A stretch of 64,000 nt of DNA, taken from sequence record NC_054920.1; one strand, written 5' to 3'. The DNA comes from Escherichia phage vB_EcoM_G9062. A program made the position numbers and the translations under genes. Positions 11,549 to 62,829 of the stretch are shown here, piece by piece; the first letter of the stretch is position 1, and every line of letters starts with the position of its first letter. The notes under the pieces were generated by a model that was given only the letters and a program-made list of their open reading frames with translations, searched no databases and was not told where the DNA came from.

Positions 11549-12151
11549 TTATAGATTAAATCCTTCAAAATCAAGAGTATAGATAGTGTATGTTGAATAC
11601 TTTTTATACTCGTATCTATCCGCAATTCTAAATACACTTCCAGCTGGTATCATTACTTCTTGTTCATCTGAAACTAATTCCATATTACGATAGCGATGGC
11701 TATCCGGAAACTTAAAACTCGGACTATATTCTTTACAACGTAAAGCTTTTATAGCATACTCCTGGAAATTAAACACCATAGGAGCTTTGAATTCAAAAAT
11801 AACTTGTGTGTTGTATTCTAATCCAGAAGCAAAATGTAGAGCTATATTTTTATCATATGAAGCTGATACTACTTTATCAAATGTAATAATATCAATTCCT
11901 TGATTTAACACCTGTTTAGTCTCAACTGGAACACCTCTCCAAAGAGGTTTATCGTTTGGAACCAAACGAGATTTGACTATTTCATTTAACCAAGAATGAT
12001 CGTCTGGTTTATTAGTAATACAATGAATTAAAAGTTCAATTTCAGATAAATTAAATCCTTCAGAAAGTAATTCTTCACGAATAGAAGCACGCACCGATGC
12101 ATCCATTGATTTGATTTTAAAATCTTTTAATTGCATTGCTGAATATTTCAT
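11549..12151 (-). CDS. modA: ADP-ribosyltransferase ModA (200 aa)
   Basis: 200 aa; R/S-x-S/E-x-E ART motifs (RGVP, SASYD, EQEVMIP). Confidence 0.8.
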   Translation of the reverse strand: MKYSAMQLKDFKIKSMDASVRASIREELLSEGFNLSEIELLIHCITNKPDDHSWLNEIVKSRLVPNDKPLWRGVPVETKQVLNQGIDIITFDKVVSASYDKNIALHFASGLEYNTQVIFEFKAPMVFNFQEYAIKALRCKEYSPSFKFPDSHRYRNMELVSDEQEVMIPAGSVFRIADRYEYKKYSTYTIYTLDFEGFNL

Positions 12152-12771
12152 TCAACTACCTCAATATCATACACTTTAAATGTTCCAAATGAATCGTGTA
12201 ATTTTTCTTTTGAAATAGAAGTTATTTTATACTTTCCAATTGGAATCATCCATTCTTGTTCACGTACAATCATCATTAAGTTATCAGTACGTTCTGAATC
12301 TAATCCATCAGTATCTTCATATGTATACTTAAATTCAGTATTAGGAGAAGAAAGTATAATATCGCTGATATGGTCAGAATAATTAAAAGCTTTATCAGTT
12401 TTTAAGCGAAATATTATTTCAGTGAAATACTCAACATAAGAAAAACCACATGCTGTGTGCAAACTAGTAGTAAATGAATCTACTCTGTTCGTTGAAAACA
12501 CTTCTCCGACTTGTAAATCTTTAATGAGTTCTTTTGTCGATTTTGATATACCACGATATAGCTGATAAGGCGATTTAGTTAAATGCTTTTTAACGATTTT
12601 ATTCAACTGCCGATGAAGAGCTTCATTCTTTTTGGCTTCCATACACTGCCAAAGAACTGACTGTTCAAAGTCAGTAAATTTTTCACATACCTTTTTATAC
12701 ATATCATATTGAAAATCAACGCTTTCAGCTTTTATAGATAACTGTTCAACATCTGCAAGATTAATAATCAT
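12148..12771 (-). CDS. modB: ADP-ribosyltransferase ModB (207 aa)
   Basis: 207 aa; ART motifs (YRGIS, FSTNR, EQEWMIP); paralog of ModA; ATGA overlap. Confidence 0.8.
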   Translation of the reverse strand: MIINLADVEQLSIKAESVDFQYDMYKKVCEKFTDFEQSVLWQCMEAKKNEALHRQLNKIVKKHLTKSPYQLYRGISKSTKELIKDLQVGEVFSTNRVDSFTTSLHTACGFSYVEYFTEIIFRLKTDKAFNYSDHISDIILSSPNTEFKYTYEDTDGLDSERTDNLMMIVREQEWMIPIGKYKITSISKEKLHDSFGTFKVYDIEVVE

Positions 12772-58226: not shown

Positions 58227-58439
58227 TCATTTTTGTCCTGTATTTACTTTATGCCGATGCACGGCCTTAACTTTATCAAGGTATTTTTCAAAATTTCGCA
58301 ATCTAGTATAGTCTGCCGGAGATTGGTTGAGTGATACTTCTCGACGCAAAGCTGAAATGATATTTCCAACTTCCCTACGAATTTCATCTAATTGAAGAAC
58401 AGTAAGATTGCGAAGTTGCTTTTCAGTTAATTGTAGCAT
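58227..58439 (-). CDS. hypothetical protein (70 aa)
   Basis: minus-strand ORF. Confidence 0.45.
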
Positions 58440-58481
58440 ATATACCCCTTTAGTTAGATAAACCTATTTATAACTTTTGCA

Positions 58482-59063
58482 CTAACCGAGCTTTTTAGTT
58501 AATTCATTCCAATGTTTTCTACACAAAGAAACATAAATTTCATCACCAATACAGATTTGATTACCTTCTTTAACTGGTGTTCCATCTTCCATTAATCGAG
58601 CTGTTATAATAGCTTTTTTACCACAATGACAAACTGCCTTTAGTTCAATAAGTTTATCTGCAATCGCCAAAAGTTCTTTAGAACCTTCAAATAATTTTCC
58701 AGCGAAATCAGTCCTTAGCCCATAAGCCATAACAGGAACATTATATGTATCAACAATTCGACTTAATTGATGCACCTGTTCAGTTTTTAAAAACTGAGCT
58801 TCATCTACAAATACACAATGAATATCTTTTTGTGCTTCAGCCCATTTATAGAACTCAAAAATATCCATATCATCCGTAATAATATTCGCTTCCTGCTTAA
58901 TTCCAATGCGAGAAACGACTTCACAGACAGAATCGCGAGTATCAATAGCAGGCTTAAGAACTAATACACCCATTCCGCGTTCTTTATAATTATGTGCAGC
59001 AGTCAAAAGAGAAGCAGATTTTCCAGCATTCATTGCTGCGTAAGTAAAAATTAAACTCGCCAT
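58482..59063 (-). CDS. tk: thymidine kinase (193 aa)
   Basis: 193 aa; P-loop MNAGKS; C-terminal zinc motif CHCGKKA...C. Confidence 0.9.
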   Translation of the reverse strand: MASLIFTYAAMNAGKSASLLTAAHNYKERGMGVLVLKPAIDTRDSVCEVVSRIGIKQEANIITDDMDIFEFYKWAEAQKDIHCVFVDEAQFLKTEQVHQLSRIVDTYNVPVMAYGLRTDFAGKLFEGSKELLAIADKLIELKAVCHCGKKAIITARLMEDGTPVKEGNQICIGDEIYVSLCRKHWNELTKKLG

Positions 59064-59072
59064 ATCACCTTC

Positions 59073-59258
59073 TTAAAGCATATTCACATAAGCTATTAAT
59101 TCGTTTTCTTTCTTATCAAACCGATCAGCAAATTCTTCTTGCTGTTCGGGAGATAGCGGGCCGTATTCATCATAAAAGGTGTTTGCTTCTGTATGCTCAT
59201 CTAGAAGTTCATGGATAAGCTCAAACAATTTATCTTTTTGTTCTTTACTCAGACTCAT
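59073..59258 (-). CDS. hypothetical protein (61 aa)
   Basis: minus-strand ORF. Confidence 0.45.
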   Translation of the reverse strand: MSLSKEQKDKLFELIHELLDEHTEANTFYDEYGPLSPEQQEEFADRFDKKENELIAYVNML

Positions 59259-59424
59259 ATATTAATTTCCAGGAGTTTTAAAATAATTCGCTTTTGCTTA
59301 AATATTTCCATAGTTAAATGACCAGTATCTTTTTGACCGATTCCAATGGCAAAACCTTTATTGACAGCGAGTTCAATTAAATTATCAAGCTCACGTAACA
59401 CTTCATACTGTAACTCAAAACTAT

Positions 59425-59637
59425 TCATTTCGGTTTACCTTCTTTAACGAAATCTGGATAAGGATAAAATCCCGAATAAAATCCTTCACCTTTATGATTG
59501 ATGCATCCTTTATTAGAACAATAGCACCAATAATCGAAATCACAAGCCATTTCATCGTTGCATAAAGCAAAAACAACTGGCCATTTACACTTTTCACAAT
59601 GGGCATTTTTAAGAATACTAGTTTGGCTCATAACCAT
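59425..59637 (-). CDS. cysteine-rich small protein (70 aa)
   Basis: CEKC...C...C.C...C pattern. Confidence 0.45.
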   Translation of the reverse strand: MVMSQTSILKNAHCEKCKWPVVFALCNDEMACDFDYWCYCSNKGCINHKGEGFYSGFYPYPDFVKEGKPK

Positions 59638-59855
59638 GTAACCTTTAAGCAGTATTCTTCTACATGCTGTTTACGACCTTTCTTATCAATAAAGGTATAT
59701 TCAACGAATGTTCCAATGTAGTCTTTATCTACATCATGCGGACTATTAATTGGACATTTAGTACGGCAAATGCGTTCCCATTGACGAATAATTACTGCCT
59801 TATTCTTTGGGTCATATGGATGTGGATAATGTATATTCATAATAACGGTTCCCAA
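59628..59855 (-). CDS. hypothetical protein (75 aa)
   Basis: minus-strand ORF. Confidence 0.45.
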   Translation of the reverse strand: MGTVIMNIHYPHPYDPKNKAVIIRQWERICRTKCPINSPHDVDKDYIGTFVEYTFIDKKGRKQHVEEYCLKVTWL

Positions 59856-60304
59856 TCAACAATCACAATTTCTAATTTAGAGGAATATGTATCTAAAATC
59901 CCCTCAATAATATCCCAGTTCCCTTTACCTATGCCTGCACCAATCCTAGGCATATAGATTGTAGGTTTAATCAGTTTATTTTCACCAAACTCATTTAATT
60001 CTAACATACAATTCATTAAAGCGGAATACTCAAAATTTGGCCCTGGTTGAAATTGAGTATAAAGGTTGAAGCAATACGCTTTATGAGTCCTAAAATATTT
60101 TTCATAGACTGAGTAAGAACCGAGTTTAGTTACATCACCCCATTCAGTCTGTAATTTATCAGCTTCCAAAATTTTAGGGAAAGCTTTGGTTAATTGACCC
60201 GCTACGCCTGAACCCATAGTATGAAAACAATTGCATCCATGCGCAATATTTTTACCTTCAGCGAAAAGGGCGACAATATCGCCCTTGATATATTTTACAA
60301 TCAT
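59837..60304 (-). CDS. macro-domain protein (155 aa), putative ADP-ribose binding/hydrolase
   Basis: motif IAHGCNCFHTMGSGVAGQL (compare VNAAN...GGGVAGAI) and RIGAGIGKG glycine loop. Confidence 0.55.
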   Translation of the reverse strand: MIVKYIKGDIVALFAEGKNIAHGCNCFHTMGSGVAGQLTKAFPKILEADKLQTEWGDVTKLGSYSVYEKYFRTHKAYCFNLYTQFQPGPNFEYSALMNCMLELNEFGENKLIKPTIYMPRIGAGIGKGNWDIIEGILDTYSSKLEIVIVDWEPLL

Positions 60305-60642
60305 CTAGTACTCAATCCTCGATTATAAGAATCTACCAAACGGTCAACCATTGAATGACAAGCGGCTTTATCTTTCTCCTCCGCAACTGAACATTCTAAG
60401 GTATTCCACTTTTTAGCATATCGTTTTAATAATGTATCGTTTTTGTATCTGCTTGATTTATCTCTTTCTCCGTCTTTATATGCATATATTAATTTCTGCG
60501 CAAATTCAGCTTGGCATGCTTTATTTTTCCCACAATAATCTGCCGCAGTGCGATTTACATATTCTCTAATTTCAGTATATGATGTATCTGCTAACGCAGA
60601 AAATGAAATTAATCCTATACATAAAACCAAAATTTTAGTCAT
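60301..60642 (-). CDS. secreted protein (113 aa)
   Basis: signal peptide MTKILVLCIGLISFSALA; four cysteines. Confidence 0.5.
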   Translation of the reverse strand: MTKILVLCIGLISFSALADTSYTEIREYVNRTAADYCGKNKACQAEFAQKLIYAYKDGERDKSSRYKNDTLLKRYAKKWNTLECSVAEEKDKAACHSMVDRLVDSYNRGLSTR

Positions 60643-61180
60643 TTACTATTTCCAAAAGTTTATTATTTTTAAGGTAATTAGCCTTTTCTAGGACTTCAGA
60701 AGCATATTTAGAACCTGCTTTAACATTCCATCCCGAATTATAAGATGATATTGCTTTTCTTATATCGCCCTTATGTATATTTAACCAATAAGAAAGTTCA
60801 ATGTACGCCCAGGAAGCTGAATTGGATCGTTTATTCAACATTCTTTTTATTTCAGCATCGGTCATATTATAACCAAGTTCCTTAACTCTTGCTCGCATAG
60901 TAGGCAAATAATTTTGGAACATTCCATAAGCGTGATGCTTTGGTTTAGATTTTAAATTAACTCCGCCAGAGCTTTCTTGCCATAAAATAGCAGCCATTAT
61001 ATGACCTAATCCGCTCTTGTGGATATTTTTGTGTGTTTTATATTTTCCATCCTTAGAAAATTGTTCCCCGAATTGATACGCGTAACGCATGTTATCGAGT
61101 TGGACATTACTGAAAGTATGCTCGGAGCTATGTGCCATCATTGAAATGGCCAATAGACCAGCGAGTAGTGCTTTTCTCAT
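60635..61180 (-). CDS. secreted lytic-transglycosylase-like protein (181 aa)
   Basis: signal peptide; SLT-type motifs ILWQESSGG and AYGMFQ. Confidence 0.55.
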   Translation of the reverse strand: MRKALLAGLLAISMMAHSSEHTFSNVQLDNMRYAYQFGEQFSKDGKYKTHKNIHKSGLGHIMAAILWQESSGGVNLKSKPKHHAYGMFQNYLPTMRARVKELGYNMTDAEIKRMLNKRSNSASWAYIELSYWLNIHKGDIRKAISSYNSGWNVKAGSKYASEVLEKANYLKNNKLLEIVND

Positions 61181-61187
61181 GCTTACC

Positions 61188-61649
61188 TCATTGAGTTTTA
61201 ATTACTGCTTTAGAAGCCTTTCCTGGTAAACGACGACTGTTGATAATTGCCATCCTGCATTGAAGTGACGGGTTTTTGAACTTCTCATTAGGCTTACAAA
61301 CCGTAAATCCAAGCCAAAGATTTCCATCTGTGATTTCTAAACGTCCAGGACGATATTCAACCCCATCAATAAAATCCTCGTCAATGTCAGGACGCGGAGG
61401 CATACTCAGGAATTCATTAACTTCTAAAACATGGTCTTTTATTTTATGGAATAATTCAAAAACATATGTCTCATCAATCTCCCGTTGAATTGCACGATCA
61501 AGAAGATGTTGAGAATATTTTAGATGAAACGATGAGACTCCTGCTGCTTTTGATGCCTCACGAATCTCATTGTTAATTTGACGAAACTCCGACTCAAAAT
61601 GACGACGAAGCTTATTTCTACGGATAAAAACTTCTGTATTGATAGTCAT
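61188..61649 (-). CDS. regB: endoribonuclease RegB (153 aa)
   Basis: 153 aa; position between tk region and denV. Confidence 0.85.
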   Translation of the reverse strand: MTINTEVFIRRNKLRRHFESEFRQINNEIREASKAAGVSSFHLKYSQHLLDRAIQREIDETYVFELFHKIKDHVLEVNEFLSMPPRPDIDEDFIDGVEYRPGRLEITDGNLWLGFTVCKPNEKFKNPSLQCRMAIINSRRLPGKASKAVIKTQ

Positions 61650-61673
61650 GTTATTCTCCTCTTAACTGATAGA

Positions 61674-61705
61674 AAAATTATACCACAGTCAAGAGGAAAA
61701 GTAAA
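61674..61705 (-). promoter_or_regulatory. T4-type early promoter
   Basis: minus-strand GTTTAC (61705-61700), spacer, GGTATAAT. Confidence 0.5.
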
Positions 61706-61708
61706 CAG

Positions 61709-62029
61709 TTATTCTTTAAATCTAATCAATTTATTCATAGACTTTGTAACTTCTGCACGAACCTCATGTAAGTTTTTAAGCTGTTCAAGACTTTGCTCAT
61801 AGTAAGCAATTTCATCTTCTTCGAGGCAGTCCTGTGAATCTTCTTTAAGATAACGTGCATAGTCCTGGAAAGCTTTACGGACTACTTCCTGGAAGTCATC
61901 AAGACTTTGAATTTTCTTAGGAGCAACAGATACACGACGAGGGGCAGTATAATACTCATAACCAAACCCTGCGCTTAATTGAGCCATTAGTATTTTTCCT
62001 CTGGTTGGAACACTGCGCGACAAGCCCAC
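61709..62029 (-). CDS. hypothetical protein (106 aa)
   Basis: minus-strand ORF. Confidence 0.45.
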
Positions 62030-62253
62030 ATACTGGCTTCTTTGAGTTTCATTTTAGCAATAGTTAACTGATCGAGGCTTTCGGCGTAATTCTTCGCGAG
62101 TTCATCATCTTCACAGCTATCAAATGCTTCCCAGAATTCATCATATAAAGCATCAAAGATAAGCCCTAAACGAACTTCAGCATCTTTGATAGCATTCACT
62201 TTACTGATTTTATCGTCAGTATGTGGTTTATAACCTTTAATGTCTTCAATCAT
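61987..62253 (-). CDS. hypothetical protein (88 aa)
   Basis: minus-strand ORF. Confidence 0.45.
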
Positions 62254-62467
62254 ATTTTACTTCCTCACCTGTTCCCAAATCATATTCAACTAAACGAATA
62301 GGTTCATGAATGCCATATCCTTGAACAGAAATTTCTGTCGTAGGATAAATTCCATTAATATCACCCATGTTCCATGCTTCGTTAAATTGCTGTTCGCCTG
62401 AATTACTAAACCACTCGGCGAAAGCATTTAGCACATCTTCAGAACCTTCAATAATTATCTTTGCCAT
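62246..62467 (-). CDS. hypothetical protein (73 aa)
   Basis: minus-strand ORF, coupled to downstream gene. Confidence 0.45.
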   Translation of the reverse strand: MAKIIIEGSEDVLNAFAEWFSNSGEQQFNEAWNMGDINGIYPTTEISVQGYGIHEPIRLVEYDLGTGEEVKYD

Positions 62468-62829
62468 TACAAACTCTCGGTGAAGGTACGAGCGATAACG
62501 TCGCGCTGCTGTTCCGGAGTCAGAGAGTTAAAGCGAACTGCATAACCGGATACACGGATGGTCAGCTGCGGATATTTTTCCGGATGCTTAACTGCATCTT
62601 CCAGAGTTTCACGACGCAGAACGTTAACGTTCAGGTGTTGACCACCTTCAATTTTAACTGTAGGCTGTTGCTCAATTTCAATTTCACGGGCATGCAAACC
62701 ATAGAAAATTTCTGGGTCTACAAAAGAGTCCTCTTTAAAGGTTTTAGAGACAATAATTCGTGCTTGAATACCATCTTCAAAATAAATAGTACCTTTATGT
62801 GTGCCTTCAAGAATTTGATATGCTTTCAT
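62467..62829 (-). CDS. autonomous glycyl-radical cofactor, GrcA/YfiD-like (120 aa)
   Basis: C-terminal 60 aa [61 protein letters not shown] matches E. coli GrcA as I recall it; that half is visibly GC-rich. Confidence 0.8.

Follow-up and report, generated by a model that had tools for sequence, protein, structure and literature searches.

Tk.4 (AdfM) of Escherichia phage vB_EcoM_G9062, a glutamine-type macrodomain and probable eraser of DarT2-made ADP-ribose from phage DNA

The tk.4 locus and its neighbourhood

The window analysed here, a 64,000-nucleotide stretch of DNA from Escherichia phage vB_EcoM_G9062 (sequence record NC_054920.1), is of Tequatrovirus origin and carries the gene tk.4, also named adfM, whose product is identical to Tk.4 of phage T4 (NP_049723) at 155 of 155 positions. 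The gene and its immediate surroundings are as follows:

59837..60304, minus strand: tk.4 / adfM coding sequence, 155 amino acids, a single macro domain, running from ATG to stop (ORF listing)
60301..60304, minus strand: ATGA overlap of the vs stop and the tk.4 start (read from the sequence)
59837..59840, minus strand: ATGA overlap of the tk.4 stop and the tk.3 start (read from the sequence)
60301-60642, minus strand: vs (ORF listing)
59628-59840, minus strand: tk.3, an ORF 100% identical to T4 Tk.3

These genes belong to a tightly packed block with the order regB - vs.1 - vs - tk.4 - tk.3 - ... - tk, and tk.4 keeps the neighbours that it has in T4, with tk.3 downstream and vs, vs.1 and regB upstream. 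GAGGA and GAG are found 7-16 nt upstream of the tk.4 ATG, and a ribosome_binding_site is among the features lying under the match in record X04567. The 2.2 kb around tk.4 are 100% identical in several Escherichia phages, in whose records the gene is variously named 'macro domain protein', 'Poa1p-like family protein' and 'ADP-ribose binding module protein'. In the T4 reference record Tk.4 is labelled 'phosphatase; contains A1pp phosphatase motif', and the A1pp match of the tk.4 orthologues was given in a 2006 comparison of T4-like genomes (PMC1524935). In a consensus-based scan of 58300-62600, promoter-like sites numbered 16 where 16.9 were expected, and terminator-like sites numbered three where 2.0 were expected, both at the level of chance; these scans are uninformative and we therefore build no claim about the expression of tk.4 on them.

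Unlike Tk.4 itself, other proteins of the two phages differ, with 97% identity for both ModA and Vs, and the tk.1-tk.2 segment of T4 has been replaced. Between tk and tk.3 (59064-59627) there is no DNA-level homology to T4, whereas the flanking genes are 98-100% identical. The place of T4 tk.1 and tk.2 is taken by three small minus-strand ORFs (59073-59258, 59255-59428 and 59425-59637), one of which is 54% identical to Tk.2, the other two being unrelated and 57 and 70 amino acids long; the 70-residue ORF is cysteine-rich (CEKC...C...C...CYC...C..H) and is possibly a zinc-binding protein. The product of vs, the valyl-tRNA synthetase modifier, has a two-residue deletion relative to T4 in its N-terminal signal-like segment, and according to a preprint on the HIDEN-SEQ method, no T4 gene is depleted more strongly than vs when minimal medium is used (bioRxiv 10.1101/2025.11.20.689424). 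The Vs.1 homologue (60635-61180, minus strand, 181 amino acids) likewise has a hydrophobic signal-like segment at its N-terminus, and weak matches to SLT transglycosylases have been documented for vs.1 orthologues (PMC1524935). Further upstream, a minus-strand ORF of 120 amino acids (62467-62829) with the glycyl-radical motif RVSGYAV corresponds by position to T4 vs.6, which is annotated as the autonomous glycyl radical cofactor GrcA.

Tk.4 is a macro domain of the ALC1-like class

A preliminary description of this DNA, made from its letters and ORF translations, had recognized a macro-domain signature in tk.4, namely N-x(5)-G-x-G-V-A-G-x-L followed by a downstream glycine loop. Both elements are present, and with the residue discussed below they map as follows:

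60191..60232, minus strand: first ADP-ribose-binding loop, N25-L38, reading N25-CFHTM-G31-S-G33-V-A-G-Q-L38, which is N-x5-G-x-G-V-A-G-x-L
60053..60055, minus strand: codon of Q84, at the position of TARG1 K84, DarG K80 and SCO6735 Gln85 according to profile alignments
59921..59950, minus strand: second glycine (phosphate-binding) loop, P119-G128, reading PRIGAGIGKG

The Pfam Macro profile (PF01661) matches Tk.4 with 27.7 bits, above its curated gathering cut-off of 22 (E 2.9e-6), over profile positions 2-113, that is 112 of 118, and Tk.4 matches PHROG 335 with an E-value of 1.3e-65. An AlphaFold2 model built from a 55-sequence alignment has a mean pLDDT of 95.3 and a pTM of 0.90, and displays the three-layer alpha/beta/alpha macro fold. 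The conserved Asn, the GxG loop and the second glycine loop that typify the fold are found as N25, G31-S-G33 and G122-A-G124, with conservation that is complete or reaches at least 90% among 117 relatives. From the Pfam, PHROG 335 and AlphaFold2 results it follows that the motif in Tk.4 is not a mere chance occurrence, and the macro-domain assignment holds, given a Pfam score above the cut-off, a confident model and a Foldseek search in which human TARG1/OARD1 (PDB identifier 4J5S) is the top match (E 6.6e-10). Among the 364 ORFs of at least 50 amino acids in the window there is no second macro-domain gene.

The closest structural neighbours of Tk.4 form the ALC1-like class (TARG1, DarG, SCO6735 and Poa1p), which stands apart from MacroD-type and PARG-type domains. 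In sequence, Tk.4 lies about equally far from BT1257/SCO6735, Poa1p, TARG1 and DarG, and its subfamily placement thus leaves the substrate unfixed.

A glutamine at the position of the catalytic lysine

The active site was compared by aligning the profile of the Tk.4 family to DarG, TARG1, BT1257, SCO6735 and gp104 of phage PhiKZ, for which the DarG sequences were taken from a PDB search with PhiKZ gp104 and SCO6735 from a search with BT1257, and TARG1 was checked against the PDB. Conservation was assessed over 117 members of the family, which span 34-98% identity. Q84, G33, A35, P119, I121, G122 and G124 are invariant in these 117 relatives, and N25 and H22 are conserved in at least 90% of them. 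N25 aligns with N22 of DarG, N27 of SCO6735 and N23 of PhiKZ gp104, the mutation of each of which lowers activity (PMC5179494, PMC9411070 and PMC13309987, respectively). The second loop of Tk.4 aligns with G117/G119 of DarG and G126/G128 of SCO6735. Q84 occupies the site at which DarG and TARG1 have their catalytic lysine, and G126 the site of TARG1 Asp125.

Many of the positions at which DarG contacts its ligand are identical in Tk.4. For example, the ADP-ribose contacts N22, V31, Q34, T79, G117, G119 and G121 of Thermus aquaticus DarG correspond, by profile alignment and residue count, to N25, V34, Q37, T83, G122, G124 and G126 of Tk.4. Similarly, Gln85, Asn27, His24 and Gly126/128 of SCO6735 are kept as Q84, N25, H22 and G122/G124. 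Neither of the lysines by which SCO6735 positions DNA is kept in Tk.4, which counts against an action on DNA: K34 is replaced by S32, and the loop corresponding to that of K89 is shorter and Lys-free. Tk.4 is mildly acidic, with a pI of 5.9 and a net charge of about -2, and this calculated acidity is not what one would expect of a DNA-binding enzyme.

For SCO6735, a water-mediated mechanism has been proposed in which Gln85 positions the distal ribose (PMC9411070). Since the catalytic lysine is absent from Tk.4 and an invariant Q84 is found instead, its chemistry would be expected to follow this SCO6735-type, water-mediated and Gln-dependent route, with an active-site geometry as read from the alignments. 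Q84 and N25 are hence the residues that we single out for mutation.

Protection against DarTG2 and a proposed mechanism

DarT ADP-ribosylation of phage DNA is a widespread bacterial defence, and phage-encoded erasers reveal a route of escape from it. DarT2 targets thymidine in single-stranded DNA, and the modification is reversed by the DarG macrodomain, for which Lys80 (equivalent to TARG1 Lys84) is essential, the K80A variant being inactive (PMC5179494). As the vB_EcoM_G9062 protein is 100% identical to T4 Tk.4, the genetics of T4 on DarTG2 hosts transfer to it directly. In the HIDEN-SEQ study, a preprint of November 2025, a T4 transposon library was grown on E. coli with DarTG2; tk.4 was the only significant T4 gene on this host, a clean tk.4 knockout rendered T4 sensitive to DarTG2, and the gene was renamed adfM, for anti-DarT factor, macrodomain (bioRxiv 10.1101/2025.11.20.689424). 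Its authors write that stripping of ADP-ribose from DNA by Tk.4 'seems likely', and the available text of the preprint reports neither complementation of tk.4 nor a catalytic-mutant control. The literature searched holds no biochemical assay of Tk.4 and no in vitro hydrolysis of DarT-made thymidine-ADP-ribose by it. The suggestion of the preliminary description that this protein might counter host ADP-ribosylation agrees with the genetics of the identical T4 protein, both the HIDEN-SEQ match and the clean deletion. The gene was already known, being annotated as A1pp/macro in the T4 record and since 2006, and its defence role has been public since late 2025.

Two other observations are in line with this role. 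T4 lacking AdfN, the NADAR protein encoded by gene 30.3, still resists DarTG2, and AdfN acts only on the guanosine adducts made by DarT1 (PMC11825919). Phage T5, the DarTG2-sensitive control in both DarTG papers, has no ORF of the Tk.4 family, the best of its 710 ORFs reaching an E-value of 0.022 with the Tk.4-family profile. In the T5 genome we also note T5.105 (L007, 7789-8295; 168 amino acids), which the T5 record labels 'Sir2 (NAD-dependent deacetylase)'; its N-terminus, IIFLDIDGVLN, resembles the DxDG motif of HAD phosphatases rather than a sirtuin, and the annotation may be wrong.

From homology and the published phenotype we infer, as the best-supported model, that Tk.4 is a Gln-type, lysine-independent thymidine-ADP-ribose glycohydrolase. 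As a counter-defence eraser it would hydrolyse, in a Gln84-dependent manner, the thymidine-ADP-ribose made by DarT2 on phage DNA, a reading to which we assign a probability of roughly 0.75. Host DarT2, from the DarTG2 system, places ADP-ribose on thymidines of single-stranded phage DNA and blocks replication. Tk.4 would most likely bind the ADP-ribose moiety in the canonical cleft formed by N25, G31-G36 and G122-G128, and would most likely cleave the bond between thymidine and ribose, restoring normal DNA, with Q84, held in place by N25, standing in for the lysine that is catalytic in DarG and TARG1. Reversal of thymidine-ADP-ribose is documented within the same macrodomain class for DarG (PMC5179494), SCO6735 (PMC9411070) and PhiKZ gp104 (PMC13309987). 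Phage-encoded erasers are also relevant to the choice of phages for therapy.

Broader, non-catalytic and small-molecule readings

A wider version of the eraser model can be considered, in which Tk.4/AdfM is a broad-spectrum, lysine-independent ADP-ribosyl eraser that uses a water-mediated Gln84/Asn25 mechanism to remove thymidine-ADP-ribose plus other adducts. These could include acidic-residue ADP-ribosylation of proteins, RNA ADP-ribosylation of the CmdTAC kind and the products of ModB. We hold this version to be doubtful; if true, about 5% of sequenced phages would owe to one small protein a general protection from ADP-ribosylating defences.

It is also conceivable, if unlikely, that Tk.4 protects mainly without catalysis, either by binding and inhibiting DarT2 or by shielding ADP-ribosylated sites. 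The catalytically dead Q85A variant of SCO6735 still inhibits DarT in vitro, and does so more than dead DarG or TARG1 (PMC9411070), and full-length DarG inhibits DarT by binding as well (PMC5179494). The absence of the catalytic lysine from Tk.4, and the cautious wording about hydrolysis in the available preprint text cited above, are also compatible with such a role. However, the Tk.4 family shows no or almost no variation at the counterparts of the SCO6735 catalytic residues Asn27, Gln85 and Gly128, and this strict conservation of catalytic-type residues argues for enzymatic activity of Tk.4. Moreover, the isolated DarG macrodomain carrying K80A does not inhibit DarT (PMC5179494), and the C-terminal DarT-binding domain of DarG has no counterpart in the 155 residues of Tk.4, which match positions 2-146 of the 338 in the DarG model.

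The hydrolytic eraser model also has to be weighed against a main substrate that is a small ADP-ribose derivative, such as ADP-ribose-1''-phosphate, O-acetyl-ADP-ribose or an NAD-derived immune signal, and the processing of soluble ADP-ribose derivatives or NAD signals has been put forward as a generic proposal for phage Macro domains (PMC9503650). We consider this quite improbable for Tk.4, whose sole reported phenotype, in the available text of the preprint, concerns DarTG2 specifically, and this system modifies DNA (bioRxiv 10.1101/2025.11.20.689424). The 'phosphatase' label of Tk.4 reflects a domain-name match and not an assay, and the T4 NADAR protein, once proposed to act on a soluble substrate, proved to act on DNA (PMC11825919). 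A small-molecule side activity could nevertheless exist alongside a role on DNA.

Distribution of the family and the phage ADP-ribosyltransferases

In tblastn searches of 50,697 phage records, 2,749 records proved to have a member of the Tk.4 family, among them 293 Salmonella, 184 Pseudomonas and 129 Vibrio phage records, whereas 1,009 records had a ModB-like gene and 1,221 an Alt-like gene. The records with ModB- or Alt-like genes are almost all of enterobacterial, Acinetobacter or Aeromonas T4-like phages, and neither Pseudomonas nor Vibrio figures among the ten leading genera for ModB or for Alt. The Tk.4 family being far commoner than Alt and ModB, most phages that carry this macrodomain do so without those transferases.

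Two homologues of Tk.4 have been deposited under bacterial metagenome-assembled genomes (MAGs) assigned to Bacilli and Culicoidibacterales (L004, 1927-2397, and L005, 6001-6480). The contig of each is of T4-like phage type, with genes for RNA ligase 1, a Dda-like helicase, polynucleotide kinase, dCMP deaminase and a T4 spanin, and these contigs are probably phage DNA that was binned into bacterial genomes. No DarT family is listed near either homologue. An origin of Tk.4 as an orphan or recently captured antitoxin was also considered and finds no evidence here, both MAG-labelled homologues being in phage contigs devoid of DarT.

The preliminary description had pointed out ModA and ModB in this genome, and both are encoded within the window. 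They are located as follows:

11552-12151, minus strand: modA, found by tblastn with T4 ModA, 97% identity over the full length
12151-12771, minus strand: modB, found by tblastn with T4 ModB, 96% identity over the full length

The two are adjacent paralogues that cross-match at 26-30% identity, and their coding regions meet at 12151 in the tblastn coordinates. Alt is encoded by T4 at a position outside the window. The co-occurrence of these genes had led to the suggestion that Tk.4 reverses or tunes the ADP-ribosylation made by Alt, ModA and ModB, and it is true that the activity of SCO6735 and TARG1 extends to ADP-ribosylated acidic residues of proteins (PMC9411070, PMC10789625). This suggestion is unsupported and we regard it as highly improbable: homologues of Alt and Mod are annotated in public records as NAD:arginine ADP-ribosyltransferases, and the removal of arginine-linked ADP-ribose is the work of ARH/DraG enzymes and not of human macrodomains (PMC10789625); the Tk.4 family outnumbers ModB and Alt as given above and is common where those transferases are rare or never found, as in Pseudomonas, Vibrio and Salmonella phages; tk.4 adjoins none of alt, modA and modB; and the only tk.4 phenotype reported, in the preprint text available, is the DarTG2 requirement (bioRxiv 10.1101/2025.11.20.689424). 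The genes modA and modB are given here as context only.

Comparison with known macrodomains

With the gene and its phenotype already on record, what the present analysis adds, namely the Gln-type active site of Tk.4 and its separation from the AdfM of PhiKZ, are modest refinements. They emerge from comparison with known systems. The DarG macrodomain (Mycobacterium tuberculosis, PDB identifier 5M3I; T. aquaticus, PDB identifiers 5M31 and 5M3E) has the catalytic Lys80, whereas Tk.4 has Gln84, as do all 117 of 117 relatives, and DarG has a C-terminal DarT-binding domain, which Tk.4 lacks. Against the NCBIfam DarG model (NF048014) Tk.4 scores 30.3 bits where the cut-off is 250, with the match limited to model positions 2-146 of 338, and against the PADLOC model (PDLC02990) it scores 36 bits over positions 2-145 of 329. 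No darT adjoins tk.4, whose neighbours are vs and tk.3. Classification of Tk.4 as a DarG-type protein was accordingly rejected, as it falls below the threshold and has neither the C-terminal domain, nor the lysine, nor an adjacent darT. A caution follows for those working on the T4 family, to which the mechanistic details or inhibitors of DarG should not be carried over.

The Gln-type members of the ALC1-like class, SCO6735 of Streptomyces coelicolor (PDB identifier 5E3B) and BT1257 of Bacteroides (PDB identifiers 2FG1 and 2AFC), are about 26-29% identical to Tk.4 and have the same replacement of Lys by Gln. SCO6735 cleaves DarT-made thymidine-ADP-ribose efficiently and rescues cells from DarT, and its Q85A variant is dead and its N27S variant nearly so (PMC9411070). 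It differs from Tk.4 in having a longer mobile loop together with K34 and K89, and in being encoded on a bacterial chromosome, Tk.4 being carried by a phage. Human TARG1 belongs to the same class, but its K84/D125 dyad corresponds to Q84/G126 in Tk.4; TARG1 is credited with reversing the thymidine-ADP-ribose made by DarT (PMC8501950, PMC9411070). Yeast Poa1p (PDB identifiers 6LFQ-6LFU), an ADP-ribose-1''-phosphate phosphatase, matches Tk.4 in sequence mainly over the N-terminal 98 residues, and it acts on small-molecule substrates, an activity not known for Tk.4.

A second phage protein with this name is gp104 of PhiKZ, which was independently named 'AdfM' (Cell Rep 2026, PMC13309987) and which removes DarT2-made ADP-ribose from DNA in vitro, in a paper that claims that no macrodomain Adf had previously been reported (PMC13309987). 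Tk.4 and gp104 are both stand-alone macrodomains of phages, and both give protection from DarTG2. However, gp104 is a true DarG-like protein and a close relative of DarG, matching M. tuberculosis DarG with an E-value of 9e-25, carrying the lysine in its FPTKDNWR motif, and reaching 133 bits with the PADLOC model of DarG and 138 bits with that of NCBIfam, whereas Tk.4 belongs to a different subfamily. BLASTP of gp104 against Tk.4 aligns only a 23-residue stretch around the first loop, with seven identities and an E-value of 0.005. This comparison of sequences suggests that the two proteins that share the name AdfM may represent lineages acquired independently within one macrodomain class.
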